Of a DNA stretch of 39,487 nucleotides, positions 11,015 to 27,352 are shown in pieces. The notes under the pieces were generated by a model. That model was not told where the DNA came from. It did not search any database and was given only the letters and a program-made list of their open reading frames with translations. The DNA is taken from positions 3,218 through 42,704 of the forward strand of contig CAYWVK010000001.1 of NCBI GenBank assembly GCA_964461865.1, written 5' to 3'. This DNA comes from an uncultured Gammaproteobacteria bacterium. GTDB lineage: Bacteria; Patescibacteriota; Microgenomatia; Levybacterales; UBA12049. The number at the start of each line of letters is the position of its first letter. The stretch's first letter is position 1. Both the position numbers and the translations under genes were made by a program.

Positions 11015-11015
11015 A

Positions 11016-12544: not shown

Positions 12545-12590
12545 CTTAAATTTGATATTAGCAAATGATAACTATAAATACAACAAAAGC

Positions 12591-13562
12591 TTAGAAAAAC
12601 TTAAGTCTTAAATACACCCAGCGAATTTTATCAGCAAAAATATATAATATATAAAGAAAATTATTAATGACTAAGTCATAACTTCCAACAAATTCTACTA
12701 ATCTTGCACCGTAACCTTGTTTAAAGCGATGAAATCCAAACCAGGGGTTTTTAGGGTTAGGATTAGGTCCAAGTGCTCCCCACATATCAAATTTTTTAAG
12801 ACCTAATTTTTGCCCAAATTTTATTGCTTCCCACATCATTAAATTAGAAGCCATATATTCGCGGTTTTTTGAACTTGATGCGCCATATGGATAATAAAGA
12901 GTGTCCTTAAAAACAAATAACATCCAGGCAGCTAGGATATTACCGTTTTGTTTAGCCAAAAATAAATGTATGGATAAATTATTTTTTCCACATTTCTTAT
13001 TTTTAAAAGATTTCCACATTAGTCGATGGTAATTTTCGCTGTGTGCATAAAATTTTTGTCTAGTCGTTGTTTCGCTAGTTAATTTTAAATATTGCTCAAA
13101 GGCTTTATCGGAGTTATCTTCAATTATTTTTACATTGTGTTTTTGAGCAACCTTTATGTTATATCTTGTTTTATGATGCATATTTTTTAGGAGCTCATCT
13201 TCGCTTTTTGTAATATCTAGCTGAAAAGTAAAGCGGGTAAAAAGTGGATGTGCGGATAAAACAAGGCCTAGTTTTTTAAGCTTTTCTTCACTTTGAGAAG
13301 TTTTTTCAATATTTGGTTCCAGTTGAATAAAAATACATTTATGCTCTTTTGCAAGAATTTTTAATTCTTTAATTGATTCTTTATTAGGCATTGGGCCTTT
13401 TGGTAAATATCCTATTGTCCAATTAATTTTTGGAATATTATGAATTGTTAATTGAATTCCATTTTTTCTTATTACTTTAATGCCACTTTTTTCTCTAAAT
13501 TCTCCCCATTCAAACGATTGGAGTGGATGAGTAGCAAAGTTATTTAAATTATTAATTTTCAT
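12591..13562 (-). CDS. FemAB-family peptidoglycan peptide-bridge aminoacyltransferase (FemX-like)
   Basis: 'HPLQSFEWGEFREKSG', 'HHKTRYNIKVAQKHNV' and 'YYPYGASSSKNREYMASNLMMWEAIKFGQKLGLKKFDMWG' match the FemAB/lipid II glycyltransferase family layout. Confidence 0.75.
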   Translation of the reverse strand: MKINNLNNFATHPLQSFEWGEFREKSGIKVIRKNGIQLTIHNIPKINWTIGYLPKGPMPNKESIKELKILAKEHKCIFIQLEPNIEKTSQSEEKLKKLGLVLSAHPLFTRFTFQLDITKSEDELLKNMHHKTRYNIKVAQKHNVKIIEDNSDKAFEQYLKLTSETTTRQKFYAHSENYHRLMWKSFKNKKCGKNNLSIHLFLAKQNGNILAAWMLFVFKDTLYYPYGASSSKNREYMASNLMMWEAIKFGQKLGLKKFDMWGALGPNPNPKNPWFGFHRFKQGYGARLVEFVGSYDLVINNFLYILYIFADKIRWVYLRLKFF

Positions 13563-15409
13563 AAGTATTCTGGAATCTCTTCTTTTTGTGAAAAAGAAAG
13601 ATTATTTGCTAAAATTTCTTCCGGTAAATCAAAAACAAATCTTGAAACCATATTGTTTGTTCTTTGTCCAAAAAATAATCTTTTTTTTGAATATGTTAAA
13701 TATAATTTTTGTTTTGCTCTTGTCATTCCAACATAACAAAGTCTTCTTTCTTCTTCAAGCTCATCTTTATTCATTAAAGATCTACTGTGTGGGAATAAGC
13801 CTTCTTCCATACCGATTATAAAAACAACTGAAAATTCTAATCCTTTTGCAGCATGAAGTGTCATTAAATTTACGACATTTTTTGTATTTTTATTTTCCTG
13901 AGGACGACTGGGTAAATGCTCTTGCTCAACTAAAGAAACATTTTCTAAAAAATCATTAATTTCCGCAAACTCAACAGCAACAGATCTTAGTTCCTTGATG
14001 TTTTCAAGCCTTTGTAGGTCTTCTTCATCTTTTTCATCAAAAAATAGTAAATAATCTGTTGCTTTAATTATTTTATCCATAATCTCAAGGGTTGTTTTAT
14101 TTGTTAATTGTTCTTTGTCAAATTCCATAAATTTACTAAACCTTTTTTTACCCAGTTTTTCTATTCTTTTTTTAGAAATAGAATCTTTAGGGTTTGCTAT
14201 TAGTTTTAAATAGGCAAGTATATCTTTAATTTCTTTTCTTTCATAAAATCTTGTTCCACCGATTAAGACATAAGGTAAACCATGACGAATAAAAACTTCT
14301 TCAATTACTCTTGATTGGGCGTTTGTTCTGTAAAGAACTGCAATGTCTGAAAATTTAATATCTTTTTGTTGATATCTTAAGTAAGCAATCTGTTCAACAA
14401 TAAATTCTGCTTCGTTGTGTTCGTTTCTTGCTTCAAAAAGCATAATTTCGTCCCCGCTTTTATTTTCAGTCCAGAGCTTTAAAATTGGATGACTGTTGTT
14501 TTTAGAAATTACCGAAAAGGATGCATCTAATATTTTTTGTGTTGATCTATAGTTTTGCGATAAATTGAAGGTTTTAATATTATTAAAATCTTCTTTAAAT
14601 TTTATCAAATTTTGAAAATCAGCTCCTCTCCAGCTGTATATGCTTTGAGAAAAATCACCAACAACACAGAGATTATTCCATTTGGATGCCAGCATTTTGG
14701 TTATTAAATATTGGGCATGATTTGTGTCTTGATATTCATCCACTAAAATATATTTAAATTTATCTTGATATTTTTCTAAAACTTGAGGATTTTCCTTAAA
14801 AAGTTTAACTGTTTTTAAAAGCAAATCATCGAAATCTAAAGCATTATTGTCATTTAATAATTTTTGATAGGAAAGATAAACCCTGGCAACAACTTGCTGA
14901 AAATTTCCTCTTGCATAATTTGGATATTCAAGTTCTGAAATTAATTCATTTTTTGCTTGGGAAATCGTAGCTAAGACAGAAGATGGTTTAAATTCTTTGT
15001 TAGAGATATTTAGTGTTTTAAATATTTCTTTTATTGCGTCTTTTTGATCTTGCTCGTCGTAGATTATATAATTTGAACCAAGCCCAACATATTTTCCCTC
15101 AGTTCTTAGTATCCTAGCACAAAGTGAATGAAAAGTAGAAATTAATGGCTTTAAATTTTTTTTAGAAATGGTTATATCAAGAAATTTTTCTACTCTTTCT
15201 TGCATTTCGTGAGCAGCTTTGTTAGTAAATGTAATCATAAGAATATTATCAGGGCTAGTAATATTTTGAGAGATTAAATTCAAAACCTTAAAAGTTAAAA
15301 CTCTTGTTTTTCCTGATCCTGCTCCTGCAAGTATAATCATTGGTCCATTACTATTTAATACTGCTTGTTTTTGCTCAGCATTTAGGTTGTTGAGAAAGTC
15401 TTTGTTCAT
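13559..15409 (-). CDS. UvrD/PcrA-family ATP-dependent DNA helicase
   Basis: Walker A 'AGAGSGKTRVLT', 'DEYQDTN', 'NYRST' and motif VI 'LCYVGMTRAKQKLYLTY'. I prefer ATG 15409 (MNKDFLNNLNAEQ...). The ORF track extends to a GTG at 15427, which would abut tpiA. Confidence 0.85.
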   Translation of the reverse strand: MNKDFLNNLNAEQKQAVLNSNGPMIILAGAGSGKTRVLTFKVLNLISQNITSPDNILMITFTNKAAHEMQERVEKFLDITISKKNLKPLISTFHSLCARILRTEGKYVGLGSNYIIYDEQDQKDAIKEIFKTLNISNKEFKPSSVLATISQAKNELISELEYPNYARGNFQQVVARVYLSYQKLLNDNNALDFDDLLLKTVKLFKENPQVLEKYQDKFKYILVDEYQDTNHAQYLITKMLASKWNNLCVVGDFSQSIYSWRGADFQNLIKFKEDFNNIKTFNLSQNYRSTQKILDASFSVISKNNSHPILKLWTENKSGDEIMLFEARNEHNEAEFIVEQIAYLRYQQKDIKFSDIAVLYRTNAQSRVIEEVFIRHGLPYVLIGGTRFYERKEIKDILAYLKLIANPKDSISKKRIEKLGKKRFSKFMEFDKEQLTNKTTLEIMDKIIKATDYLLFFDEKDEEDLQRLENIKELRSVAVEFAEINDFLENVSLVEQEHLPSRPQENKNTKNVVNLMTLHAAKGLEFSVVFIIGMEEGLFPHSRSLMNKDELEEERRLCYVGMTRAKQKLYLTYSKKRLFFGQRTNNMVSRFVFDLPEEILANNLSFSQKEEIPEYL

Positions 15410-15419
15410 ACCGTATAAT
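15390..15419 (+). promoter_or_regulatory. Promoter candidate TTGAGA-18-TATAAT, 8 nt upstream of the tpiA ATG
   Basis: Perfect TATAAT at 15414-15419 inside the 18-bp uvrD/tpiA gap. The -35-like hexamer at 15390-15395 lies inside the helicase coding sequence. Confidence 0.45.
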
Positions 15420-15427
15420 GATATCAC

Positions 15428-16099
15428 ATGAAACCTTTATTAATCATAGCTAACTGGAAATCAAATAAGACCGCTATGGAAGCTGAAGAATGGATTAGAG
15501 AGGTTAAGAACTATAAACAAGAAGTAGAAAATATAGAGAATAAAGAAGTAATTATTTGTCCGCCCTTTACTCTTTTGCCAATTCTTAAAACTTTGTTTTT
15601 ACAAAACAATCTTAAGTTTAAACTAGGAGCGCAAGATATGTCTCCCTTCGATAAAGGTGCTTATACAGGTGAAATTAACGCAAGACAAATCAAGGAATTT
15701 GCAGAATATGTAATTATTGGACATTCTGAAAGAAGACAAAATTTTAATGAAAATGATAAAATACTTGGACAAAAAGTAGAAATGGCAGCAAATCATAATG
15801 TTTCTACAATATATTGTGTACAAAATATTTTAACCAGCGTGCCAAAAGAAGTAAAAGTGATTGCCTACGAACCGATTTTTGCAATTGGCAGCGGAAAGCC
15901 GGATACGCCTCAAAGCGCAAAAGAAGTTTCAATTGCATTTAAAGAAAAAAGCAGTAATATAGAAAAAGTAATTTATGGAGGAAGTGTTACGTCTGAAAAT
16001 GTTAATAGTTTTACAAAAGAAGATGGCATAGACGGAGTGTTAATAGGTGGAGCAAGTCTTAATCCCCAGGAGTTTATAAAAATAATAAAAAATGCGTAA
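15428..16099 (+). CDS. tpiA: Triosephosphate isomerase
   Basis: 'IIANWKSNKT', 'IIGHSERR', 'AYEPIFAIGSGK' and 'YGGSV' are the catalytic N/K, H and E motifs and the phosphate-binding loop. Confidence 0.9.
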   Translation: MKPLLIIANWKSNKTAMEAEEWIREVKNYKQEVENIENKEVIICPPFTLLPILKTLFLQNNLKFKLGAQDMSPFDKGAYTGEINARQIKEFAEYVIIGHSERRQNFNENDKILGQKVEMAANHNVSTIYCVQNILTSVPKEVKVIAYEPIFAIGSGKPDTPQSAKEVSIAFKEKSSNIEKVIYGGSVTSENVNSFTKEDGIDGVLIGGASLNPQEFIKIIKNA

Positions 16100-17180
16100 A
16101 AAAATAATCCCAATTATTATTTTGTTATTAATTGTTTTTTTTATTGGTAAAAATGCCCTTCGTATTGCAAACTTTGTCCCTTTTTTATATGAATTAACTT
16201 TTAAAAAAGATATAAAAGTTAAAACTGAAAATAAAAGATTAAACATATTACTTTTAGGGGTTGGAGGAGAAAATCATGAGGGGCCAAATTTAACAGATAC
16301 AATAATTATTGCCAGCATAAGCCCTAAGAATGATAAAGTAACTTTAATATCATTACCAAGAGATTTTTGGGTTACAGATTTAAAAGCGAAAATAAACACG
16401 GCATATGTATATGGTGAAAAAAAGAGAGAAGGGGGAGGGATAACTCTTGTTCAGGCAGTAATCAAAAAAATAACAAATCTGCCAATAGATTACACGTTAA
16501 AAATTGATTTTTCAGGATTTGTAAATGCAGTTGATTTATTGGGTGGGATTGATGTAGATGTAGAAAAAGCATTTGATGATTATGAATACCCAATTGATGG
16601 TAAAGAAAATGACCCCTGTGGACATAAGGAAGAGGAGCTAGGAGCTCTTGCTACCGTTTCATCACAATTGGAGGCTTTTCCTTGTAGATATGAACATATA
16701 CACTTTGATAAAGGCGTTCAGCATATGGATGGTTCTACGGCATTAAAGTTTGTTAGATCAAGGCATGCAAAGGGGGACGAAGGCACTGATTTTGCCAGGA
16801 GTAAAAGACAGGAAAAAATAATAAAGGCATGCAAAGATAGGGCTTTTTCTCTTCAAATGTTTTTAAACCCCGGTAAATTTTTAGACCTCTATGATGTACT
16901 AAAAGAAAGTATAGATACAAACATAAAAGAGGATGAATTTGATGATTTTATAAGATTAATGCAGAATTTTTCCAAAGCAGAAATAAAAAGCATTGCCATT
17001 GATACGGGTGATTCAAAAACAGAAAGGGCCGGTTTGTTAATAAATCCTGAAATAACTAAGGAATATAATTTTGAGTGGGTAGTTATTCCAAGGACAGGAA
17101 GCGGAAATTATGAAGAGATTAGCAATTATATAAATTGCGAGCTTACTAGGAGTGATTGTGTTATTTCCAAAAATCCTTAA
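16092..17180 (+). CDS. LCP (LytR-CpsA-Psr) family cell-wall glycopolymer ligase
   Basis: N-terminal TM span, then 'LNILLLGVGGENHEGPNLTDTIIIASISPKNDKVTLISLPRDFWV' and 'ALKFVRSRH' LCP signatures. It overlaps the tpiA stop by 8 nt. Confidence 0.8.
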   Translation: MRKKIIPIIILLLIVFFIGKNALRIANFVPFLYELTFKKDIKVKTENKRLNILLLGVGGENHEGPNLTDTIIIASISPKNDKVTLISLPRDFWVTDLKAKINTAYVYGEKKREGGGITLVQAVIKKITNLPIDYTLKIDFSGFVNAVDLLGGIDVDVEKAFDDYEYPIDGKENDPCGHKEEELGALATVSSQLEAFPCRYEHIHFDKGVQHMDGSTALKFVRSRHAKGDEGTDFARSKRQEKIIKACKDRAFSLQMFLNPGKFLDLYDVLKESIDTNIKEDEFDDFIRLMQNFSKAEIKSIAIDTGDSKTERAGLLINPEITKEYNFEWVVIPRTGSGNYEEISNYINCELTRSDCVISKNP

Positions 17181-19360
17181 TATATTTTATATATTTTTGT
17201 ATTACCGTTTTTATAAATAATTTTTCCAAGCTTTTCAAATTTAACTTCATTAAGATCTGAATATTTTTCTTTTTCTAAGCTTCCAATAAAAACAAGAGAA
17301 ATGTGATATTTATTTATTAATTCTTTTGTTTTTATTAAATCTAATGATTCATATATGGTTTTAATATCATTAATTCTAGGAGCAGGGATGTCATATCTTC
17401 CTCTCCAAAGCCATTCATGAACAGTCCATCCTAAAACTGTTGGTAAGCCTGTATTTGAAGAGATTCTTGCATAATCAGTATAAGAATCTCCTTGTGCTTC
17501 AAGAATTACTGGTTGTTTTTTAATGTTTTTATTTAGCCAGATTATTGCATCATAATCATTGGGATAAGAAGTTTTTAGATATTTAACTCCATCTAATCCT
17601 TGTACATTTTTAAACTCTTGGTAATATGAATTTATTGAAAGATAAGGATAAATAAATATTGTTGATATTAAGATTAAGGAAAAAGCAAAATAAAAAATAA
17701 ATAATAATTTATTTAAATTATTATTTAAGCCTTTTCTAAAGCAAGAGAAAATACGAATAATGATATATGAGGATGAAATAGAAAGTAAAATAAATGCTTG
17801 ATAAACCATTTTAAACATGGTATTTGCTCTGTAGTGTGCAGGATATATGTCTTTTATGTAGATAAATTCAGGAATAATAATTAAAATAGTAGAGAATAAT
17901 ATCAATAAAATAATAAATTTATCTGTTTTTAAAAGCTTAAATGATTTTTGCCTTATTTTTTTAAATAAGAATATACAAAAAGAAAGTACCCAAAAATAAA
18001 AAAATCCGTATAAAATTAAAAGTTGCCAGATAGGTGATCTTTGACAATGATTTTCTTCAAATAAAAACGGTCCTATTTTTTTTATATTTACTAAAAAATC
18101 TGGTGGGCAAATAAAGCCAATTCCCGAAACAAAGGGTTTAAAAAACAAATTAAAAGGAAAAGAGAATATAAAATAACCGATAAAAAGTATTAAAGAAAAA
18201 AATATAGTTTTTGTGAATAATTTCTTATAAGTATCTTTTTTTAAAAGATAGATATAAAAAATAAAAATTATTGCCAAGATTAGGTAGATAGCTCCGTCCC
18301 AGGCGTTTGTCATATAAAGGACAGAGGTTAAAAAAGAAAGAAAAATAATCATAAAAAGGTTTATTTTTTCGTTTATAACAATATTTAAAAAAACAGCGAT
18401 TGTTAACAAGACAAAAGGAATATCTAAAACATGTCCATGTAAATCGGAGACAACCCATGAGTATATCGGAAATTCATGAATGGTGTTATAGATAAACCTG
18501 GTTGCATTTGGATACCAATATAGATTCGGAAAGGAGAAGGGTAAAAAATTAAGTAGCCATATTGGGACAGGGGTTTCATTTGCATAAGCTTTAAAAAAAG
18601 AGTAAAGAACATGTAAGTTTCCGGAAAATGTAACCAAAAATGCTGTTAATATTCCTGAAATTAATAAGCGGAGATGATTCACTTTTTTTATTAGTTTTTC
18701 TTTTGCTAAAAAATATAAATTAGAACCAATAGAAAATGAAGCGCTAAAACAAAAAGCAAAAACTAATGCTTGCATTAAATTGAACGTAACAGCGGAAGAG
18801 ATACCTGAAAGCTTTGTTAACATAGCAGTTATCAGATGTCCAAAATAGTAATAATTAATATTAAAAGAAGTAAACCAGATATCTTTTGCAGGAAAATAAT
18901 CTGTTCTTAAAATTGAATTTATTATTCCAAAATCCATAAATTTTTCAAGCCCATTAATGTTTGGTTGAAACATTTTTACAAAGGACCAAAAAACAAATAC
19001 ACTTAAAAAGATTATTTCTTCAATTAAATAAATTTTCCAATTTAACTTAAAAGAATTTATAAAATCTATTTTATTTAAATGCGGTATTTTTTTGTGTTTA
19101 TATTTAAAAAGAAAAAAATAATTAATAAAAAAAGCAATAATTAATATGAAAATAATACTTCCTTGAGTAAAAGAAAGAATCTTTACAGTACCTAAAACAA
19201 ATAAAGCATAAGCAGTAGCTATAATTCCTAAGATTTTAGAAAAGATGTAACCTCTATCGAAAAATTTTTTAAAAAAAGATGTCGTTATCGGTAAAAAAAT
19301 GATCCCAATAATAAAAACTATAAACCACCAAGGTAAGATGTAGTAGATATCAGAAAGCAT
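17177..19360 (-). CDS. DUF2298 / Chlor_Arch_YYY-domain polytopic membrane protein (putative GT-C-like glycosyltransferase)
   Basis: 727-aa protein with about 20 TM spans. The near-invariant family motif 'NYYYFGH' is encoded at 18836-18853. There is a C-terminal soluble domain. Confidence 0.6.
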   Translation of the reverse strand: MLSDIYYILPWWFIVFIIGIIFLPITTSFFKKFFDRGYIFSKILGIIATAYALFVLGTVKILSFTQGSIIFILIIAFFINYFFLFKYKHKKIPHLNKIDFINSFKLNWKIYLIEEIIFLSVFVFWSFVKMFQPNINGLEKFMDFGIINSILRTDYFPAKDIWFTSFNINYYYFGHLITAMLTKLSGISSAVTFNLMQALVFAFCFSASFSIGSNLYFLAKEKLIKKVNHLRLLISGILTAFLVTFSGNLHVLYSFFKAYANETPVPIWLLNFLPFSFPNLYWYPNATRFIYNTIHEFPIYSWVVSDLHGHVLDIPFVLLTIAVFLNIVINEKINLFMIIFLSFLTSVLYMTNAWDGAIYLILAIIFIFYIYLLKKDTYKKLFTKTIFFSLILFIGYFIFSFPFNLFFKPFVSGIGFICPPDFLVNIKKIGPFLFEENHCQRSPIWQLLILYGFFYFWVLSFCIFLFKKIRQKSFKLLKTDKFIILLILFSTILIIIPEFIYIKDIYPAHYRANTMFKMVYQAFILLSISSSYIIIRIFSCFRKGLNNNLNKLLFIFYFAFSLILISTIFIYPYLSINSYYQEFKNVQGLDGVKYLKTSYPNDYDAIIWLNKNIKKQPVILEAQGDSYTDYARISSNTGLPTVLGWTVHEWLWRGRYDIPAPRINDIKTIYESLDLIKTKELINKYHISLVFIGSLEKEKYSDLNEVKFEKLGKIIYKNGNTKIYKIY

Positions 19361-19386
19361 AATTAATAAGTTATTTTATTTTTATT

Positions 19387-21051
19387 TTATTTATAAGAGC
19401 AATTATTTTCATAAATATAGTATTGAGTAAGTTGGTTTTCGTATACTTTTTTAAAATTAGAGTCAAAAAAATCAAAATTAAAATTTTCATCTATGTTTTT
19501 AGTTAATTCAATATATTTTAAATTATATTCATTTAATTTATCACATGCATCATCAATATTTGAACTACCTAGGATCTCTTTTCTTATCTTATCTCTTTTA
19601 TTAGTATCGTATCCTTGTGACCAGGCAAAATAAGGCCATCCTAAAAATATTTTTCTTCCGGCAATGGAGGCAGGAGTGTATAAATACGAAGAGTTAAGAA
19701 AAATACTATCTTTTGGTGTATTTTTTATTATCCAGGATACGTCTTTATTTTTTGGATAATCGGTTAATATAACTTTATTGTCATTATAGATAGGAAAAAA
19801 ATCAATAATTCCAGAAAATGTTAAGAGAAGGATGAAAAATAAAACAACAGGTTTTAAGAAATTTCTCTTTTTCCAAAGCCAAATTAAAAAGTAAGAAGAA
19901 AACATCACTCCTATAATCATGAATAAGTTTATGAATTTATGATTTGCGGCAATTTCCACTGAAAATTGAAATATGTTAGCAATGATAAACAAGATTAAAA
20001 ACGAAACAAACACTTTTCTTTGAGTTTTTAAAGCAATCAAAAACCCAAATGGGATTAAAAGAATATGAAGGCCCAAATTATAAAACCAATAGTTTAAGAA
20101 TGAATATAAAGTTAATCTGTCGCTTATTAAATAACCGGGATCAATAAAGAAAGAAGAAGTTGAAAAGCCTGATTGGGTATACATGTAAAAAGGAATTGCG
20201 GTTATTAATCCAATAAGCATAAACACAATTAAAGAATAACGGTTTTTTTTAAAAAATATCGATAAGGAAATTGCAATTATTAATGTCATTGCATAAACAG
20301 CCATGTTTAAAAGAAAAGAAAAACCTAAGATAACGCCTAATACGATACTAAGCTTTAAAGAAATTTCCTTTTTACTTAAAATCTTTTTAAGAAATAAATA
20401 AACTAAAAATAATGACAGGGCATATGACATGCCAAGATGTCTTTGATTTGTGTAAATATTTAAATTCCAGAAAGCAGAAACTATTCCATCTCCATAGTAA
20501 GGAGCAAAAGAGGAAAAGCTTTTATTAGATATAATATCAACTAAAATATTATTTGAACTATTAAAATAAGATTTAAAAAAATAAACAAAACTTAAACTAC
20601 CGTTAAAAAGAAAAAATAAAACACTTAATATTCCTGTTGTTTTTGATTTAAAAATTAATTTAGCGGTTAAATAAATTATTATTAACAATCCGAAAAAACC
20701 TATAATAGATGGAATATTTAAAGCGTAATCAATTCTAAGTCCTATTTTTTCTAAAATTCCTGAAATTAAATAAAAAAGAAAATGATAATGAATCGGAGTT
20801 CCTGGAAAAAGAGGATATTCAGGCAAGAAATTATTACCTAAAGAAAAAGAGCGAATAAGGGGAATATGGCTGGCAAAATCACTCCATGCCTTAGTGGATA
20901 TAAGCATACTGCCATTTTCATAAGAAAAAGATGAAAACATTAACCAATAACTAAAAAACAGAGAAAATAATATTAAAGCAACTTCTATTTTATTTTTTTT
21001 AATAAGTTTTAGTTTTTTTTTAAAAAATTTATTCACAGCAAATTTTTGCAA
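19387..21051 (-). CDS. Large polytopic membrane protein, possible GT-C-like glycosyltransferase
   Basis: 554-aa protein with more than 12 TM spans and a C-terminal soluble domain of about 140 aa. The architecture resembles its neighbour. I see no diagnostic motif. Confidence 0.4.
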   Translation of the reverse strand: MQKFAVNKFFKKKLKLIKKNKIEVALILFSLFFSYWLMFSSFSYENGSMLISTKAWSDFASHIPLIRSFSLGNNFLPEYPLFPGTPIHYHFLFYLISGILEKIGLRIDYALNIPSIIGFFGLLIIIYLTAKLIFKSKTTGILSVLFFLFNGSLSFVYFFKSYFNSSNNILVDIISNKSFSSFAPYYGDGIVSAFWNLNIYTNQRHLGMSYALSLFLVYLFLKKILSKKEISLKLSIVLGVILGFSFLLNMAVYAMTLIIAISLSIFFKKNRYSLIVFMLIGLITAIPFYMYTQSGFSTSSFFIDPGYLISDRLTLYSFLNYWFYNLGLHILLIPFGFLIALKTQRKVFVSFLILFIIANIFQFSVEIAANHKFINLFMIIGVMFSSYFLIWLWKKRNFLKPVVLFFILLLTFSGIIDFFPIYNDNKVILTDYPKNKDVSWIIKNTPKDSIFLNSSYLYTPASIAGRKIFLGWPYFAWSQGYDTNKRDKIRKEILGSSNIDDACDKLNEYNLKYIELTKNIDENFNFDFFDSNFKKVYENQLTQYYIYENNCSYK

Positions 21052-22312
21052 CTTTTTGTCCTAATTCAACTGCATAGTTTACGCCTCTGTCCCAAGGATA
21101 AACTTGATCCATATTTGCTAAAAAAATGTTCTTATGAGGAGTTTTAATATCAGGAATTATTTTAGAATAATTTGTAAAAACAATTGGTTGTGCATAATTA
21201 CTTTTAAACAATTTGATATCAATAATGTCCTTTTTGTAATCTTTATTAATTTTTTTGAGAAATGGATCAAAAACAGCTAATAGTTCCTTTTTATTTTTAG
21301 AAAAATATAAACTATCTACAGGAAAATAATTTCCTATATAAACAATATTTTCATTATTGTAATTTTTTTTGTTTATAAAATTTGTATGTTCTACAATTGC
21401 CATAACCGGCGATTTTTTAGAACAAATATTTAGCCAATATGTACCATCTGTTAAAAAACTTTTTTTAAATCTGATAATTAAACTTATTGCTCCGATGCTT
21501 TTCAACTTATTTAAATTATTTTTATAAGTTTTGGAAAGATTATCTGTAGTTTTTAAAAATTCAAGAGTTGAAGAGGTAACAATAATTTTGTCGAAGATAA
21601 AAACTTTCTTTTTATTTTTATTATTTAAAACTTCAATAATTGTTTTTTCATCATTATTTTTTATTTTTATTATTTTACTTTTGAAAAAAAAATGCCCGTT
21701 TAATTTTTTTATTATTTTATAAAGAGAATTTTCAAATTCTAAAAAACCACCGACTGGATAAACAAGAGATGTTGTTCTTTTTTTAACTCTAGCCCAAAAC
21801 CAAGCAAGAGATATGTCCTTTTTATAATTTTTAAACTTATTTTCAAATAGTGGTTGCCAAATTAATTGATAGCCTTGTTTTCCCATTAGTAAGGGGAGTA
21901 GTTTATTGGCTTTTACTTTTTCTAATGGTTTCCAGAAGGGATTATAGCGAAGTAGGGCTAATGACATACCCATTCTTAATCGTTTTATAAGTGATAAAAG
22001 CGGAAAATTAATAAGGGTTAAGGGTGAGTCTAGTTGGTAAGTTTTTCCGTTTATAAGGCTTGAAGTTTTAGGTCTTAGTGTAATTAATTGTTGATTAATT
22101 TCTTCAGCTAAGTTTTTAACAGCGATATCATTTGTAAATAAATGATGATAATGGTTTTCAATAGACCATTTCCAATCTTTTTCTTTAAAACCTGAAGCAA
22201 GCCCTCCTAAGAAATTTTCTTTTTCAAAAATATAAACGTCATGACCTTTTTTTACCAAATCATAAGCAGCAGACAGGCCTGTAAATCCTGCTCCTAAAAT
22301 TGCAATTTTCAT
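21029..22312 (-). CDS. FAD/NAD(P)-binding oxidoreductase (amine-oxidase/phytoene-desaturase-like Rossmann class)
   Basis: N-terminal dinucleotide fold 'KIAILGAGFTGLSAAYDLVKKGHDVYIFEKENFLGGLA'. The C-terminal 'NMDQVYPWDRGVNYAVELGQKVA' is typical of this flavoprotein class. Confidence 0.65.
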   Translation of the reverse strand: MKIAILGAGFTGLSAAYDLVKKGHDVYIFEKENFLGGLASGFKEKDWKWSIENHYHHLFTNDIAVKNLAEEINQQLITLRPKTSSLINGKTYQLDSPLTLINFPLLSLIKRLRMGMSLALLRYNPFWKPLEKVKANKLLPLLMGKQGYQLIWQPLFENKFKNYKKDISLAWFWARVKKRTTSLVYPVGGFLEFENSLYKIIKKLNGHFFFKSKIIKIKNNDEKTIIEVLNNKNKKKVFIFDKIIVTSSTLEFLKTTDNLSKTYKNNLNKLKSIGAISLIIRFKKSFLTDGTYWLNICSKKSPVMAIVEHTNFINKKNYNNENIVYIGNYFPVDSLYFSKNKKELLAVFDPFLKKINKDYKKDIIDIKLFKSNYAQPIVFTNYSKIIPDIKTPHKNIFLANMDQVYPWDRGVNYAVELGQKVAKICCE

Positions 22313-23787
22313 AAGAAAGATAATCTTCCGCGGCTTAATAGAAGTAAAATTATGCCCAGAATTGTAGTTGTTATACCAATAATAAAAAGATTTATCAAGG
22401 ATGAACTTCCTACAGACGGTGGAGCTTGTATAGCAGAGGGAGTAGCATTTATTACAGTTGGGGTAGGGGTTTGAATAATAACTTGAGTGGGGATAGGAGT
22501 TATTGTAGGTGAAAGAGCAATTATTGGAGTAATTGTAATAGTTGGACTAACGGTAACTTCCGGTTCTGTTGTTGGGGTTGGTGTAACAGTGGTAGTTGGT
22601 AATGGAGTAATTGTTGGGGTTAGTGTAATTGAGGGTAACCCTGTAGGCGTAGGAGATAAAGAATCGGAAAAGGTGCTACCTGAAGCATAAACTGTAAAAG
22701 ATTTTGTAATTGTTCTTAAAATTCCTTGTGCGTCTTTTGAGATTATGGTAATTGTATGATCTCCAGGAGATAACTCTTCTTTTGGACGATAATACCAGTT
22801 TCCATATTTATCTGCGTTAACTTCATCTTCAATTTGATTTTCGGAATTAATGATTATCTTAACTACCTCATTTGGTATTGCTTTGCCTTTAAATTCGGGT
22901 TTTAAATCTGAAAAACTTTGATTTTCTTCTTTAGGCGATGCTATTGAAGGAGAGCTAATGCCATTTTTGCTTGTTGAACTTGCAGGAAATGAGGGAAGCT
23001 TTTCAAGCTTACCGGATTCGGAAGCTTTCTTAGCTTCAAGACTAGTTGTAAAGTCATAATTTTTAGAAAGAGTGATTAATGGAACCGGATTTATTTGTTG
23101 AAGTGATAATAATATATTTGATGAATAACCATCTCCTACAATAGTCATTTTTATATTTGTATTTTCTGCAAACATGAAATATGAAGATAAATCTTTATTT
23201 CTTAGGGAATTAAGAGGAAGAATGTATGATCCATCTTCTTTTACAATAGTTGAAATGACTTGTGCTTCTTCTATAGTTGCATAAATAATTGCTTCTTTTG
23301 GTGGTTCCCCGTTTGATAAAAGAATTTTCCCTGTAATCGGTTCTTGCTCATTAGGTTTGCTATTAATTAACGATCCTGTGGTTACTTCGTAGAAAGAGTC
23401 GTTATTTAGATAAGTCTCTTCTCCGCTAGTAATTGAAAAATAATATTTTGTTTGAGGTTTTAAGTTTCTTGCGGTAATGCTGTGAATTTTTCTTGGTGTG
23501 ATGTCGCCTGATGTTTGATCTTTATCATCAAGCACCTTTTGTAAAGAATCTTTATTTTCTCCAATATTTATCGAGCCAATTGCCTCACCATTTGTTGAAA
23601 AAGAAATTGTAGTAGTGGAATCTGTAATATTCGTAATTCTTACTTCTTGAGGATTATCAACCGGGGTTGCTCTTGTAATATAAAATACTCCTTGATTCAC
23701 AAAATATGATGTTAGTCCGATACCAATTGTTATAAGAAACAGTCCCAATATGGTTGGTATTCTTTTATTCCAAAAACTTTTTTTCAC
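22309..23787 (-). CDS. Surface protein: N-terminal TM, FN3-like, CarboxypepD_reg-like and Ig-like beta-sandwich domains, Thr/Pro linker, C-terminal TM anchor
   Basis: 'PQEVRITNITDSTTTISFSTNG...LKPQTKYYFSI' is FN3-like. 'ITGKILLSNGEPPKEAIIYA...EDGSYILP' is carboxypeptidase-regulatory-like. 'GKAIPNEVVKIII...ADKYGNWYYRP...LSPGDHTITIISKDAQG' is bacterial Ig-like. An 87-aa TP-rich linker, a hydrophobic helix and 'SRGR' follow. Confidence 0.55.
   Translation of the reverse strand: MKKSFWNKRIPTILGLFLITIGIGLTSYFVNQGVFYITRATPVDNPQEVRITNITDSTTTISFSTNGEAIGSINIGENKDSLQKVLDDKDQTSGDITPRKIHSITARNLKPQTKYYFSITSGEETYLNNDSFYEVTTGSLINSKPNEQEPITGKILLSNGEPPKEAIIYATIEEAQVISTIVKEDGSYILPLNSLRNKDLSSYFMFAENTNIKMTIVGDGYSSNILLSLQQINPVPLITLSKNYDFTTSLEAKKASESGKLEKLPSFPASSTSKNGISSPSIASPKEENQSFSDLKPEFKGKAIPNEVVKIIINSENQIEDEVNADKYGNWYYRPKEELSPGDHTITIISKDAQGILRTITKSFTVYASGSTFSDSLSPTPTGLPSITLTPTITPLPTTTVTPTPTTEPEVTVSPTITITPIIALSPTITPIPTQVIIQTPTPTVINATPSAIQAPPSVGSSSLINLFIIGITTTILGIILLLLSRGRLSFL
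22408..22668 (-). repeat. Low-complexity Thr/Pro/Ile-rich linker-coding tract (degenerate TPTITP-type repeats)
   Basis: Encodes 'SDSLSPTPTGLPSITLTPTITPLPTTTVTPTPTTEPEVTVSPTITITPIIALSPTITPIPTQVIIQTPTPTVINATPSAIQAPPSVG'. Reiterated ggagt/attgt/ggtgt units are visible at the DNA level. Confidence 0.6.
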
Positions 23788-24104
23788 GGCAATAATGCTC
23801 CTCCCAAAGAAGCTTGATTTTCTTGCGTTTCTGTTTGTAGAGCTGGAGTTGGGATAGCACTTGTTGTCGCACTAGGGGTTGTTGATATTTCATTATGTTT
23901 TATATACAAAGGTTCAATTTGATCTCTTTTTTTTATATTCTCAATAGTTTTTAAATCGAAATCAGCTTTTATTGGGGTTACTTTATTAGTAATTTTTTTG
24001 GGAATAGTAGATTCTACAGAGCCGTGATAAACATTAAAAATAATCCAGATAAATATTACGAATAATGATGATCCTAGAATAAAAATAATATCTTTTTGTT
24101 TCAT
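23784..24104 (-). CDS. Small membrane-anchored protein with a Thr/Pro-rich tail, in the pilP-equivalent position
   Basis: 106-aa ORF with an N-terminal TM span. Its start lies 1 nt after the pilO-like stop, and it overlaps the next gene by 4 nt. Confidence 0.45.
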   Translation of the reverse strand: MKQKDIIFILGSSLFVIFIWIIFNVYHGSVESTIPKKITNKVTPIKADFDLKTIENIKKRDQIEPLYIKHNEISTTPSATTSAIPTPALQTETQENQASLGGALLP

Positions 24105-24105
24105 A

Positions 24106-24729
24106 TTAGCTTTTAAAGTATGCTGTTCCTTTTATGCTTAGCTTTAATATATTTCCTTTTTTTCGATCAGAAACATTATTAATGGTTATTGTTTCAAGCG
24201 ATAATATTCTTTGCATATTACTTAATGAACTTATAAACTTTACGATATTATTATAATCTCCCTCAATTGATATATTAAAATTGTAACTTGAATATTTTTT
24301 AGAAACTTTATTTTCAGATATAGCTTCAACTTGAAGAGTTTGTGCACTAATAATATCCACGCCGTTATTTTTTGCTAATGCTTCAATTTGGCCTATAAGT
24401 ACTGCGTTTTCCGGTGTCTTAGGAATAGCAGAGTAAACATCAACTAGGTCTCCTTGAAGATTAGCGTATTTTTCCTGAAGAATTGAGAGATTATTAATCT
24501 TTTGTTTTAGCTGTTCTTCAATAAGCTGATTATCTTTTAGTTCTTTTTGAAGTTTTGATATAGTTGATAATGTTGGTCCTATTGCAAAAATTCCAAAAAA
24601 ACAAAGAGTAATTAAAGTTAGAGCTAAGGTAATAAATTTTTTGTTTTTTTCCTCTTTAAAAGAGGGTAAAAGTTGTAAATATTTATTTTTTTGTAAATTA
24701 TTAAGCCAATCTTTTTTTATGGTTATCAT
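24106..24729 (-). CDS. pilO: Type IV pilus assembly protein PilO-like
   Basis: The architecture runs from a basic N-terminus through one TM span (FITLALTLITLCFFGIFAIGP) and a coiled coil (KLQKELKDNQLIEEQLKQKINNL) to a C-terminal alpha/beta domain ('IPKTPENAVLIGQIEALAKNNGV'). I chose ATG 24729, 1 nt after the pilN stop, rather than the track's 24810. Confidence 0.55.
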   Translation of the reverse strand: MITIKKDWLNNLQKNKYLQLLPSFKEEKNKKFITLALTLITLCFFGIFAIGPTLSTISKLQKELKDNQLIEEQLKQKINNLSILQEKYANLQGDLVDVYSAIPKTPENAVLIGQIEALAKNNGVDIISAQTLQVEAISENKVSKKYSSYNFNISIEGDYNNIVKFISSLSNMQRILSLETITINNVSDRKKGNILKLSIKGTAYFKS

Positions 24730-24730
24730 A

Positions 24731-25285
24731 TTATTTCTTTTTAATTTTATTATCCTTAATGCCTGCTGAAATTCCGAAAGTAATAAGTGATGTTGATGGT
24801 TTATTTTCAATTTTATCTACACTTAAAGTGTCAATTAAGGAATACTCCTTTAGCTCATTAACAAAAGACCCCAGTGCGGTTATAGAGTCTGTGCTAGCAC
24901 TAATTCTAATTTGATCCTCATAAAGAGAGAAATTATTAAAAATTATTCCTGATGGTGCAAAGTCTATAATATCACTAAATATTTTTATTTTTTCACTGGA
25001 TTGACTTGAAAATGTACTCGCAGCCAATAATCGATCCTGAAGGTTAATATACATTTCTTCATTTTCTTTAAAAAAATCTACAATTGCTTGTTCTTGTTTA
25101 ATTTTTTCATGAAGATCTATTAGTTGTTTGTCCAGGGTAAATCTATATATAAAAGCTGACAATGCGATTATTTCAACAACTATAACTACTATTCTGCCTA
25201 TATTTACAGACCATTTAATAATTTGATCAATGATATCAGTTTTGCCTGTTTTTAATAAATTTATATCAGCAACGTTTCTTGCCAT
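24731..25285 (-). CDS. pilN: Type IV pilus assembly protein PilN-like
   Basis: N-terminal 'ADINLLK' (the PilM-binding INLL motif), a single TM span, a coiled coil and a C-terminal ferredoxin-like region. Confidence 0.6.
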   Translation of the reverse strand: MARNVADINLLKTGKTDIIDQIIKWSVNIGRIVVIVVEIIALSAFIYRFTLDKQLIDLHEKIKQEQAIVDFFKENEEMYINLQDRLLAASTFSSQSSEKIKIFSDIIDFAPSGIIFNNFSLYEDQIRISASTDSITALGSFVNELKEYSLIDTLSVDKIENKPSTSLITFGISAGIKDNKIKKK

Positions 25286-25294
25286 ACTAAATTT

Positions 25295-25323
25295 AGTCTA
25301 GGGTTTTTTAAGATTTTTGTCAA
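25295..25323 (-). promoter_or_regulatory. Promoter candidate TTGACA-17-TAGACT, 9 nt upstream of the pilN-like ATG
   Basis: On the minus strand, the -35 is at 25318-25323 and the -10 at 25295-25300; ATG at 25285. Confidence 0.4.
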
Positions 25324-25343: not shown

Positions 25344-25655
25344 TTATTTCTTTGTTTTTGTTTTAGTGGTTTTTTGTTTTGTTTTTTTAGTTACCTTTTT
25401 TGTTTTTGTAATTTTTAATTTTCCTGAGGCTATTTTTGCTAATTTTGATTTTAATCTCGCCGCTTTATTTTTGTGAATGATTCTTTTCTTGGAAGATTTA
25501 TCAATAATTACCGTCGCCTTTCTTATATTTTCAGCTAAAGGATTTTTAACAGCTTTTTTTACTAGCTTTTTATATTCTTTTTTAAGCTTATCGTTTTGGG
25601 CTGTTCTTTTTTTGTCTTTTCTTAATTTTTTCTTTGCAGATTTTATTACTGGCAT
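25344..25655 (-). CDS. rpsT: 30S ribosomal protein bS20 with a Lys/Thr-rich C-terminal extension
   Basis: 'MPVIKSAKKK...' and an exact 'IHKNKAAR' match to E. coli S20. An extra tail of about 24 aa reads 'LKITKTKKVTKKTKQKTTKTKTKK'. Confidence 0.9.
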   Translation of the reverse strand: MPVIKSAKKKLRKDKKRTAQNDKLKKEYKKLVKKAVKNPLAENIRKATVIIDKSSKKRIIHKNKAARLKSKLAKIASGKLKITKTKKVTKKTKQKTTKTKTKK

Positions 25656-25661
25656 CAGGCT

Positions 25662-25690
25662 ATTTTAGCATGCTATACTGTAAAAAACAA
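25662..25690 (-). promoter_or_regulatory. Promoter candidate TTGTTT-17-TAAAAT, 6 nt upstream of the rpsT ATG
   Basis: On the minus strand, the -35 is at 25685-25690 and the -10 at 25662-25667; ATG at 25655. Confidence 0.5.
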
Positions 25691-25693
25691 TAT

Positions 25694-27352
25694 ATGCCCA
25701 AGAAATTTTTTCAAAAAGGCCTCAATCTTTTGTTAAGGCGACAGACAAACATTTTATCTGCTGCATTTGTAATTATGGGTACGGTAGTTTTTTCTCAAGT
25801 TTTAGGTTTGATAAGACAAAGGCTTTTGGTGTCAATTTTTGGAGCATCGGATACGCTTGGAGTGTATTTGGTGGCATCAAAATTACCTGATTTTTTATTT
25901 CAACTAATAATTGCCGGAGCGTTATCTTCGGCATTTATACCAATTTTTTCTGATTATCTAGGTAAGAATAAAAGAAAAGAGGCACATTTTTTAGGATCAA
26001 CTCTACTTACTTTTAGCTTAATTATTTTTTGTGGTCTTTCAGTTTTTCTTTTAATTTTTGCAGAATATTTTTCAAGGCTTATCGCTCCGGGATTTTCAGA
26101 ACAACAAATTGTTTTAATGGCAAATTTGATGAGAATAATTATTTTTGGTGAAATTCTTTTTATAGTTGGTAGTTTTTTATCTTCGGTTCTTCAATCTTAC
26201 AATCATTTTTTTATTCCTGGCTTTGCAGCAGCTCTTTATAATTTAGGAATAATTGCGGGAATATTTTTTCTTTCCCCGTATTTTGGTATTTTTTCAGCAG
26301 CTTATGGAGTAATCCTGGGTGCATTCATTTTTATAGTTTTTCAATTACCGCTTATTAAAAAATTAGAATTTAATTTTCAACCTTCTCTTGCAATTAAAAA
26401 TAGTGGTGTTATTCAAGTTTTAAAACTAATGTGGCCTAGAACGATTTCCATTGCAATTTTTCAGTTAGGAGGAATAATTACAATTACACTTATTTCTTTT
26501 TTACCTTCCCCTGGTAGAAATTATGTAATATTTGATTATGCACAAACTCTTTTTTTTGCACCGGTTGTTCTTTTTGGACAAGCAATTGCTCAAGCAGCTT
26601 TTCCTGTTTTAGCAAGAGAGAAAGACAGATTGGGAGATTTTAAGGTAACTATAATTACCAGTTTAAAGCAAATGCTTTATCTGGTTTTGCCAATTTCAGT
26701 ATTGTTGTTAATACTTCGTATACCCATTGTTCGTCTTATTTACGGAGCAGCGCAATTTGATTGGCAGGCAACAGTTTTAACAGCGACAACCCTGGCTTTT
26801 TTTAGTGTTTCAATTTTTGCACAATCGTTAAATTATTTACTATCACGTGGTTTTTATGCGCTTCATGATACTAAAACCCCTCTTATTGTAGGAGCATTAA
26901 CTACCTGCTTAATGATTGTTTTAGGGGTACTATCAATTTTTGTGTTAAATCTTGAGGTCTGGGCTATTGCTGCATCTTTTTCTATTGCCAGTATTGTTAA
27001 TATTTTAATTTTGTTTATTTGCTTGGATAAAAAAACCGGTGGTTTTGATAAACTTTCCTTAAGTTATTCTTTATTAAAAATTATAGTAGCTACAATTTTT
27101 ACAGGATTTGCATTGTATGTACCGATTAAATTATTGGATCAGTTGGTTTTTGATACAACCAGAACAATAAATCTTTTGTTCCTAACCGGAATTTCTAGTT
27201 TTGCAGGTTTATCGTTATATCTATTTCTTACTTGGCTTTTTAATGTTAAAGAAGCGTCAATGTTTATTTTGCTTTTTAAGAAAATAGGTGATTGGAGACA
27301 AATACTTAAAACCAGTGAGGAGACAATAGATACTACCGCAACTAAGGTTTAA
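25694..27352 (+). CDS. murJ: Lipid II flippase MurJ (MviN)
   Basis: 'ILSAAFVIMGTVVFSQVLGLIRQRLLVSIFGASDTLGVYLVASKLPDFLFQLIIAGALSSAFIPIFS' is the MurJ N-terminal signature; 14-TM MOP-family layout. I chose ATG 25694. The track start at 25634 would overlap rpsT. Confidence 0.85.
   Translation: MPKKFFQKGLNLLLRRQTNILSAAFVIMGTVVFSQVLGLIRQRLLVSIFGASDTLGVYLVASKLPDFLFQLIIAGALSSAFIPIFSDYLGKNKRKEAHFLGSTLLTFSLIIFCGLSVFLLIFAEYFSRLIAPGFSEQQIVLMANLMRIIIFGEILFIVGSFLSSVLQSYNHFFIPGFAAALYNLGIIAGIFFLSPYFGIFSAAYGVILGAFIFIVFQLPLIKKLEFNFQPSLAIKNSGVIQVLKLMWPRTISIAIFQLGGIITITLISFLPSPGRNYVIFDYAQTLFFAPVVLFGQAIAQAAFPVLAREKDRLGDFKVTIITSLKQMLYLVLPISVLLLILRIPIVRLIYGAAQFDWQATVLTATTLAFFSVSIFAQSLNYLLSRGFYALHDTKTPLIVGALTTCLMIVLGVLSIFVLNLEVWAIAASFSIASIVNILILFICLDKKTGGFDKLSLSYSLLKIIVATIFTGFALYVPIKLLDQLVFDTTRTINLLFLTGISSFAGLSLYLFLTWLFNVKEASMFILLFKKIGDWRQILKTSEETIDTTATKV

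Follow-up and report, generated by a model that had tools for sequence, protein, structure and literature searches.

Introduction

Why do genes for PilN and PilO, two membrane proteins of the type IV pilus alignment subcomplex, head an operon that runs on into a surface protein, a flavoprotein and two large glycosyltransferase-like membrane proteins? The question is raised by a block of seven genes (25285 to 17177, minus strand) in a stretch of 39,487 nucleotides of contig CAYWVK010000001.1 (assembly GCA_964461865.1) from an uncultured bacterium of the Levybacterales; this whole stretch, 39.5 kb long, is called the window throughout. Type IV pili probably play a central part when bacteria of the candidate phyla radiation (CPR), in which pilus components have been reported to be widespread, attach to hosts, and how they cross the cell wall of a single-membrane cell is poorly explained. 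An earlier reading of the letters, referred to here as the original prediction, had proposed that a pilus alignment subcomplex is genetically fused to a lipid-linked-sugar glycosylation module for pilins or surface proteins. Following up this proposal, we arrive at a tentative answer, to which we give somewhat less than an even chance: the block is one transcription unit with two modules, a membrane-to-wall part of the pilus machine and an extracytoplasmic glycosylation unit. The organisms are uncultivated, and all our statements on function are inferences.

Results

PilN and PilO open a seven-gene block

On re-reading of the window, the seven minus-strand open reading frames (ORFs) of the original prediction were recovered with exactly the same coordinates and junctions. 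From gene 1 to gene 7, numbered in transcription order, the junctions measure +1, +1, -4, -4, -23 and +26 nt. Homologues were found for all seven ORFs, which marks them as genuine genes.

Gene 2 (24106-24729, minus strand) encodes 207 aa from its ATG, with one transmembrane helix at residues 32-50; its longest ORF begins at TTG 24810, ahead of the ATG start. Profile matches assign it to PilO, as had been proposed: it scored 63.5 bits against Pfam PilO (PF04350; E=3.2e-17, cut-off 22), and the profile of its 32 orthologues matched the PilO proteins of Myxococcus (3jc8, E=7e-13) and Pseudomonas (2rjz, E=1.2e-8). The names given to relatives by NCBI and JGI already label this gene PilO. Its orthologues form a tight PilO subfamily: they score above 100 bits, and canonical PilO follows only after a sharp fall, at 67 and 44 bits.

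Gene 1 (24731-25285, minus strand; 184 aa) has a transmembrane helix at residues 29-47, followed by an extracytoplasmic domain, and its sequence relatives identify it as a PilN homologue at the family level. In this form the proposed PilN identity stands, although the score of the window protein itself against Pfam PilN (PF05137; E=6e-4, 20.3 bits) lies under the cut-off of 22.8. Among its orthologues, 21 of 29 matched Pfam PilN at E<=0.01 (best E=5.9e-12), and they were also matched, at 6e-9, by the PilN of a true pilMNO locus of Saccharimonadia type. Against PDB, the orthologue profile matched Myxococcus PilN (3jc8) best, in register although at a weak E=0.03. Ahead of the transmembrane helix, the cytoplasmic N-terminus reads ADINLLK; N9 and L10 of the INL motif are conserved in >=90% of the 29 orthologues, and the motif appears as INLVP, VNLLP or VNLIP in divergent lineages, (I/V)NLL(P) being kept across Levybacteria and five more divergent lineages. 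Structures of PilM:PilN complexes define the N-terminal INLLP motif of PilN as the binding site for PilM. Conservation of this cytoplasmic motif thus points to a retained cytoplasmic partner.

The gene upstream of pilN is rpsT, on the same strand at a distance of 58 nt. Neither pilM nor a gene for a pilin, ATPase, platform protein or secretin was found in the window, which bears out the absence noted in the original prediction, nor was one for a prepilin peptidase.

A conserved promoter precedes pilN

The single promoter-like element described upstream of the block is indeed present (25295..25323, minus strand). It consists of TTGACA, a 17-nt spacer and TAGACT; from the end of this last hexamer, the -10 element, 9 nt remain to the ATG of pilN. 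When the region was scanned for generic sigma-70 sites, 50 were obtained, compared to 54.8 in shuffled sequences, so that such a scan alone is no evidence for a promoter. The exact motif, however, occurs once in the window, and 0 of 100 shuffles reached one match. In an alignment of 20 Levybacteria species, TTTGACAAA on the -35 side is invariant. For the full pattern, TTTGACAAA-N17-TAGACT, the -10 positions T, A, A, C and T are invariant as well, and the third base is G in 19 of the 20 species. The distance from the end of the -10 hexamer to the pilN start is 6-10 nt in 19 of these species and 15 nt in one. The fetched loci, 1.26 Mb in total, contain 29 matches to the promoter, and 26 of them stand immediately ahead of pilN (by script for 24 and by reading of coordinates for two).

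A conserved promoter at this position makes pilN the start of a transcription unit of its own, separate from rpsT, and the fixed short distance between -10 element and start codon suggests that the pilN mRNA is leaderless or has a very short leader. Inside the cluster, a promoter/terminator scan, overall no better than shuffles, returned no terminator-like site on the minus strand. A short palindrome, ACTAAATTTAGT (25283-25300, minus strand), overlaps the -10 element and reaches the start codon; related species retain ACTAAA(A/T)TTAGT-like sequences at this site, perhaps as an operator or a 5' hairpin.

PilO is followed by a small membrane protein and a surface protein

Gene 3 (23784-24104, minus strand) encodes a single-pass membrane protein of 106 aa and was invariably the next gene after PilO in the loci examined. 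It matched no Pfam or NCBIfam family. Alignment of its orthologues revealed an N-terminal transmembrane helix, a conserved W..F.IYH..TSTI..PI.P.FD..TI..LK.R segment and a variable extracytoplasmic tail rich in Ser, Thr and Pro.

The product of gene 4 (22309-23787, minus strand; 492 aa, GTG start) had been described as a beta-sandwich surface protein, and its domains agree with this: Pfam matches comprise Big_13 (1.5e-9), Pur_ac_phosph_N (1.8e-7) and fn3 (2e-4), and PDB matches of its profile, all of them generic, comprise Ig-like domains of SiiE (1.8e-7) and FN3 domains. From the N-terminus, a signal/anchor helix is followed by an FN3/purple-acid-phosphatase-N-like domain, the Ig-like Big_13 domain, a Pro/Thr-rich stalk, a C-terminal transmembrane helix and a basic tail. 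At the C-termini of 33 orthologues, Pro, Thr and Ser account for 29-46 of 60 residues, and most of the orthologues carry an LPxTG-like motif (LPPTGN, LPVTGS or LPKTGS) before the C-terminal helix, which is then followed by R/K. In the products of both gene 3 and gene 4, the Ser/Thr/Pro tracts have a predicted extracytoplasmic location.

A further surface protein of the window, with a PKD domain and a Pro/Thr-rich linker (29515-30645, minus strand), also ends in MPPTGP and a helix, and LPxTG-like anchoring is thus probably general in this organism. The orthologue of this PKD protein in locus L004 is the only other labelled gene with a pilN-type promoter (TTGACA-N17-TACACT at ~2217-2245, 7 nt before its start).

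The flavoprotein belongs to the PPOX/phytoene-desaturase class

Gene 5 (21029-22312, minus strand; 427 aa) encodes a soluble protein with no predicted transmembrane helix and no signal peptide. It matched NCBIfam PRK07233 (NF005560) at E=7e-111 with 371 bits, compared to a cut-off of 252, and Pfam Amino_oxidase at E=4.8e-17. Its AlphaFold model (pLDDT 91.7) was aligned by Foldseek with protoporphyrinogen oxidase (PPOX; 2ivd/2ive) and rice phytoene desaturase (5mog) at TM-scores of 0.80-0.83 and 12-17% identity. Gene 5 is therefore an oxidoreductase of the flavin adenine dinucleotide (FAD)-dependent kind, as had been read from the sequence, with a PPOX/phytoene-desaturase/amine-oxidase fold.

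Two narrower identities were rejected. As a UDP-galactopyranose mutase, the protein lacks a match to GLF, and there was no mutase among the 50 Foldseek matches listed; its likeness to these mutases is limited to the N-terminal Rossmann part. As DprE1, it lacks a match to FAD_binding_4 and falls into the amine-oxidase/PPOX class instead.

Outside Levybacteria, the flavoprotein gene adjoins GT-C (glycosyltransferase C) genes or an overlapping upstream gene with a flippase-like domain in every sampled lineage with scanned neighbours. Its neighbours are PMT_2 GT-C genes in L046 and L049, DegT aminotransferase, cupin, GT2, deacetylase and PMT_2 genes in L032 and L070, and the flippase-like-domain gene overlapping from upstream in Chloroflexota (Roseiflexus, Ardenticatenia). 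In two Chloroflexota loci, this upstream gene (LPG_synthase_TM / TIGR00374; L074 8952-10004 and L084 8994-10004) overlaps the flavoprotein gene by 4 nt, a partnership of another kind but just as close. Enzymes of the PPOX/phytoene-desaturase fold class typically handle lipophilic substrates. The cytoplasmic location of the flavoprotein, its fold class and its constant GT-C or flippase-like company together suggest a flavin-dependent step ahead of extracytoplasmic sugar transfer, acting on a polyprenyl carrier or a lipid-linked sugar.

The DUF2298 membrane proteins have a predicted GT-C fold

Gene 7 (17177-19360, minus strand; 727 aa) encodes a membrane protein with ~13 transmembrane helices and a C-terminal extracytoplasmic domain. 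It is a full-length member of TIGR03662, the Chlor_Arch_YYY family (E=2.5e-148, 495.9 bits, cut-off 300.25), and of Pfam PF10060, DUF2298 (E=3e-94, 317 bits), which comprises 6547 cluster representatives; we know of no function assigned to, or characterisation of, this family. We built its AlphaFold model on 61 sequences, representatives from a whole-library search (pLDDT 93.1, pTM 0.94). The ten best PDB matches of this model in Foldseek were all GT-C enzymes with probability 1.00, among them DPY19 (4e-7), AglB, STT3A, AftA (TM-scores 0.46/0.54) and ArnT, and were followed by noise. The modelled fold of gene 7 is that of GT-C.

Gene 6 (19387-21051, minus strand; 554 aa, TTG start) encodes a polytopic membrane protein of ~9 transmembrane helices and had no Pfam or NCBIfam match of its own. 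Comparison of its orthologues with the DUF2298 orthologues by hhalign, however, gave a probability of 98.6% (E=6.8e-16) over 512 columns, and the gene 6 orthologue in L002 has a precomputed DUF2298 match. As a divergent paralogue of gene 7, gene 6 probably encodes a GT-C glycosyltransferase too. GT-C enzymes use a polyprenyl-phosphate sugar donor and have a conserved acidic residue in their first extracytoplasmic loop. The motif W56-S57-D58-F59 of gene 6 is invariant among orthologues, D58 (WSDF) aligns with the conserved E139 and D143 of gene 7 (GLEKFMD), and the secondary-structure string tentatively places these residues in a loop. No matches were obtained for genes 6 and 7 and their profiles against PDB sequences, and the profile-profile comparison of DUF2298 with PMT_2 was not significant (42%, C-terminal region only). 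The GT-C-like nature that the original prediction had seen in both large membrane proteins thus holds for gene 7 by its model fold and for gene 6 by paralogy.

Genes 1 to 5 are conserved as a block in Levybacteria

A scan with the flavoprotein profile, limited to a single genome for each species, yielded 80 loci, the ORFs of which we labelled with profiles from the window proteins; further loci were found through PilO, independently of the flavoprotein. Genes 1-5 are contiguous and co-directional in 33 distinct species-level genomes of Levybacteria, with median junctions of -4, +1, -4 and +1 nt, and 15 of them show a 4-nt overlap between genes 4 and 5. The block is retained in ~12 genomes in which a divergent EF-G-like gene stands upstream in place of rpsT and MurJ. 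Conservation of gene order in relatives, a check named in the original prediction, was therefore found also with different flanks. In all loci, the place before pilN is taken by rpsT, MurJ, the divergent EF-G-like gene or, at individual loci, some other gene unrelated to pili, and never by pilM; L090, a pilus locus included for contrast, does have PilM_2 there. Queries with PilB, PilC, PilM and pilin of the CPR pilus locus L090 gave no matches in 87 fetched loci.

The genes behind the flavoprotein vary. A pair of DUF2298 genes as in the window was found in seven genomes. In the commoner arrangement, two PMT_2-type GT-C genes, often with one for an NAD-dependent epimerase/dehydratase, are followed by genes for a ~180-aa protein and for a DUF2298 protein: 20 related genomes have a PMT_2-type GT-C as the next gene behind the flavoprotein, and in nine the epimerase/dehydratase lies between GT-C genes. 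A profile of the post-flavoprotein and adjacent PMT_2 genes matched yeast Pmt2 at E=9e-6 and contains an HPDER motif. The ~180-aa protein, conserved and without family (L008 15772-16338 and 18 other loci), does not occur in the window; 17 of its 19 matches are in Levybacteria genomes of PMT_2 type, where its gene is immediately upstream of the DUF2298 gene.

Genes 1-4 recur, without PilM, in six further PilO-anchored loci of more distant Microgenomates. Three of these, L088, L092 and Blackburnbacteria (L091 and L038), have a same-strand GT-C gene downstream; a fourth has a PMT gene downstream on the opposite strand, and the other two end at a contig or locus edge. In Blackburnbacteria, ~8 kb of other genes lie between genes 4 and 5. 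Among the proteins encoded in this insert (L091 12072-19799) are two with cohesin domains and a subtilase of 1099 aa that carries FG-GAP repeats. In L093, the surface protein gene is followed by a gene for a protein of at least 4528 aa (9651-17206).

Genomic surroundings

The window is AT-rich (23-36% G+C) and carries housekeeping genes typical of a CPR bacterium, namely MurJ, rpsT, LepA, GroES/GroEL, TIM, UvrD, FemAB and an LCP ligase; scans for tRNAs and Rfam families found none. The nearest taxon-named relatives of the gene 5 flavoprotein belong to Candidatus Levybacteria / Levyibacteriota (54-60% identity). Many assemblies titled 'uncultured Gammaproteobacteria bacterium' (L008, L013, L014, L018, L020, L025 and others) bear the Levybacteria-type operon with syntenic flanks, and these titles look like mislabels.

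The gene for MurJ, the lipid II flippase (25634-27352, plus strand), adjoins the PilN-led block in most lineages, and in two divergent ones it stands directly upstream of pilN on the same strand (L089 7693-9390, L093 4300-5985). This neighbourhood hints at a link to wall synthesis or is merely old and stable.

A second cluster for lipid-linked glycosylation (33727-38998, minus strand) comprises genes for a UbiA protein, a WecA/MraY-like GT4, a 117-aa membrane protein without family, a PMT_2 GT-C and a GT2. Elsewhere, the window encodes a class A beta-lactamase-like protein (3790-4734, minus strand; Beta-lactamase2 E=1.6e-47), a TspO/MBR protein (4983-5453, plus strand; E=9e-54) and a 517-aa polytopic membrane protein (5502-7055, plus strand) without Pfam or NCBIfam family. 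The gene of the latter is convergent with that of a GT4/TreT-like glycosyltransferase on the opposite strand (7052-8809), with a 4-nt overlap of their 3' ends. By its appearance, the 517-aa protein could be another GT-C-like enzyme.

Discussion

A proposed pilus membrane-to-wall part joined to a glycosylation unit

In the reading that we tentatively favour, PilN, PilO, the 106-aa protein and the FN3/Ig-like surface protein would form a first module, which in a type IV pilus machine would make up the part from membrane to wall. The first two would assemble into their usual membrane heterodimer, and the cytoplasmic INLL motif of PilN would dock a PilM whose gene lies elsewhere, alongside those for PilB, PilC and the pilins. 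The products of genes 3 and 4, the latter wall-anchored in relatives, would extend this platform into the wall of a single-membrane, secretin-free cell. The flavoprotein and the two DUF2298 GT-C enzymes would constitute a second module for extracytoplasmic glycosylation with a polyprenyl-phosphate-linked sugar, in which the flavoprotein would act at the cytoplasmic side, on the lipid carrier or the lipid-linked sugar, and the GT-C enzymes would transfer the sugar outside the membrane. The likeliest acceptors would be the Ser/Thr/Pro-rich tracts of genes 3 and 4 and other surface proteins with LPxTG-like anchors.

That PilN should still work with PilM is argued by the conserved PilM-docking motif. 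A published complete Microgenomates genome, in which a sortase is present, lists PilA, minor pilins, PilD, PilB, PilT, PilC and PilM at a single locus, without PilN/PilO (PMC7143001). In the canonical CPR pilus locus L090, whose PilM has its named relatives mostly in Saccharimonadia, the order is PilB-PilC-pilin-...-PilM-PilN-PilO, followed by a 100-aa protein; a small protein after PilO is therefore normal for pilus loci. As the most economical reading, we infer a split pilus system, of which the PilN-PilO pair and two accessory envelope proteins are encoded here. A more specific version, which we consider rather improbable, would have PilN, PilO, the small protein and a glycosylated FN3/Ig-like protein, sortase-anchored in most relatives, form a wall-spanning pilus collar in Microgenomates, the single-membrane counterpart of PilP and secretin, with the flavoprotein performing a new step on the polyprenyl-phosphate carrier or sugar that feeds the DUF2298 GT-C enzymes.

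Several observations weigh against a pilus part joined to a glycosylation unit. In ~40 related loci, no pilM, pilB, pilC, pilD or pilin gene was found within 10 kb of the block, and a search with the L090 PilM returned only relatives of the query, mostly from Saccharimonadia, and reached no Levybacteria PilM. Gene 3 has no detectable similarity to the 100-aa post-PilO protein of L090, and the PDB matches of the gene 4 profile include no PilP. The sorting motif of gene 4 is degenerate in the window (APPSVGSS before the helix, RGR after it), in which no sortase gene was found. In addition, the two modules occur apart: the flavoprotein/GT-C pair is also found without PilN-PilO, in other Microgenomates and in Chloroflexota, none of the Chloroflexota loci nor those of Roizman-, Woese-, Davies- and Gottesmanbacteria have the flavoprotein beside PilN-PilO, and some lineages carry genes 1-4 without it. 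Moreover, the flanking genes MurJ, rpsT, LCP, TIM, UvrD and FemAB are syntenic in many relatives too, and unrelated genes of the window also overlap (TIM/LCP by 8 nt, FemAB/UvrD by 4 nt), so that the tight spacing and part of the conservation may reflect general collinearity in a compact genome.

Because the modules are found apart, genes 1-4 make up the invariant and firmest functional unit, followed by the flavoprotein with the GT-C enzymes, and the joining of both is a trait of Levybacteria and a few neighbouring lineages. Of the proposal of a pilus subcomplex with a glycosylation module, the conserved joint order, PilN/PilO and the GT-C enzymes thus stood the comparison, whereas its tie to pilins found no support, as none lies near the block in the loci examined.

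Other explanations of the locus

That pilM and other pilus genes are never next to the block could also mean that PilN and PilO, with or without PilM, are repurposed paralogues, which would serve as a scaffold for export, wall anchoring or glycosylation of the surface protein, or for the envelope generally. This is consistent with the tight PilO subfamily and with the position of the block nearly always beside MurJ and near the LCP and FemAB wall genes, and the co-option of PilMNO homologues into a flagellar motor cage offers a parallel (PMC10823254). We nevertheless think it unlikely: the PilM-docking motif of PilN has been conserved, and the small genomes of CPR bacteria, together with the published Microgenomates locus that has PilM and lacks PilN/PilO, fit a single split set of pilus genes better. 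The second module might, on the other hand, share no function with the first, so that genes 1-4 would be one unit and the flavoprotein and GT-C enzymes an independent pathway for a wall glycopolymer or lipoglycan, the product of which the adjacent LCP ligase would attach to peptidoglycan. The flavoprotein/GT-C pair in sugar-modification clusters without PilN-PilO, genes 1-4 without flavoprotein, the Blackburnbacteria insert, the general synteny and overlaps of the region and the best TM-scores of gene 7, which are with the arabinan-priming enzyme AftA, all speak for such a division. Yet same-strand GT-C genes follow in three of the four uncut PilO-anchored loci, including the flavoprotein-free L088, and in the fourth a PMT gene follows on the opposite strand; genes 4 and 5 overlap in nearly half of the Levybacteria genomes, the sole conserved promoter of this type precedes pilN, and genes 3 and 4 carry Ser/Thr/Pro tracts of the kind that PMT-type GT-C enzymes modify. 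Mere neighbourhood of the two modules accordingly seems an improbable, if serious, account.

For a third account, the original prediction had drawn on pilin arabinosylation. Group IV pilins of Pseudomonas aeruginosa are decorated with D-arabinofuranose by the GT-C enzyme TfpW, and the polyprenyl-phosphate pentose donor is made by homologues of mycobacterial DPPR synthase, DprE1 and DprE2. Transferred to the present locus, the GT-C enzymes would attach D-arabinofuranose or another pentose to pilins, the donor would come via the UbiA gene 9 kb away and the flavoprotein would replace DprE1. The UbiA gene (33727-34668) had been taken for a DPPR-synthase-like gene, and it passes the NCBIfam cut-off for decaprenyl-phosphate phosphoribosyltransferase with 235.6 bits (cut-off 207). 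In one Gottesmanbacteria genome (L077), a comparable gene follows the flavoprotein gene at a distance of 435 nt and scores 204.7 bits, just under this cut-off, and the epimerase/dehydratase of nine related genomes could pair with the flavoprotein as reductase and oxidase. A pilin, however, was absent from every locus, the UbiA gene sits in a separate cluster with WecA/MraY-like, PMT_2 and GT2 genes of its own, and the added epimerase/dehydratase, a short-chain dehydrogenase/reductase, is of the extended nucleotide-sugar type and not DprE2-like. Nor does a donor route of DprE1/DprE2 type find support: the flavoprotein is outside the DprE1 family, neither enzyme of this pair was found in the window, and the operon has no reductase. 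We regard a TfpW-like system as very unlikely.

Implications

Genes 1-4, a conserved unit that has its own invariant promoter and whose surface protein is wall-anchored in relatives, supply concrete candidates for how the CPR pilus machine crosses the wall. The assignment of a GT-C fold to DUF2298 concerns a family of more than 6500 cluster representatives. The PRK07233 flavoprotein regularly accompanies GT-C enzymes in CPR and flippase-like-domain genes in Chloroflexota, which suggests that lipid-linked glycosylation includes a flavin-dependent step so far unrecognised. In the literature searched on DUF2298, PRK07233, Levybacteria pili and Patescibacteria PilO with glycosyltransferase, we found no description of the operon, no GT-C fold assignment for DUF2298 and no flavoprotein/GT-C partnership; the GT-C fold of DUF2298, the partnership of the PRK07233 flavoprotein and the link to PilN-PilO are added here.

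Comparison with known systems

Among glycosylation systems, that of TfpW resembles the present locus in the linkage of pilus-related genes to a GT-C enzyme, here of presumably similar donor class, and in an Rv3806c-type phosphoribosyltransferase in the same genome. It differs in that the window has no pilin beside the GT-C genes and no DprE1/DprE2 homologue, and in that its GT-C enzymes are of the DUF2298 family. Protein O-mannosyltransferases of the PMT/GT39 family (yeast Pmt1-Pmt2, 6p25; actinobacterial Pmt) are likewise GT-C enzymes, which act outside the cytoplasm on Ser/Thr-rich tracts in secreted proteins, and a PMT_2-type gene takes the place after the flavoprotein in 20 related genomes; the pair in the window, in contrast, belongs to DUF2298, with no significant profile link to PMT_2. 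Within TIGR03662/DUF2298, gene 7 is a full-length member, whereas gene 6 is a divergent paralogue joined by profile-profile comparison only.

With mycobacterial arabinogalactan assembly (AftA, Emb, Lcp1), the locus has in common that the best TM-scores of gene 7 are with AftA and that a phosphoribosyltransferase, an LCP ligase and MurJ are encoded in the window. The AftA scores are modest, however, at 10% identity, and DprE1/DprE2 were not seen here. To our knowledge, these organisms are not known to make arabinogalactan.

Compared to the type IVa PilM-PilN-PilO(-PilP) subcomplex of Myxococcus xanthus (3jc8) and Pseudomonas aeruginosa (2rjz), genes 1 and 2 encode homologues with the same single-pass topology, and the INLL motif is kept. 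In contrast to the type IVa arrangement, pilM is not adjacent, no pilus gene lies within 10 kb, the PilO belongs to a distinct subfamily, and a surface protein followed by glycosylation genes stands in place of PilP and secretin. In the flagellar motor cage, a different machine, homologues of PilM, PilN and PilO were all co-opted, a role shown there by tomography and genetics (PMC10823254), whereas the present block is known from genes alone and has no PilM beside it. What the two share is that pilus alignment proteins are found outside a pilus locus, and the cage thereby sets a precedent for such proteins serving another envelope machine.

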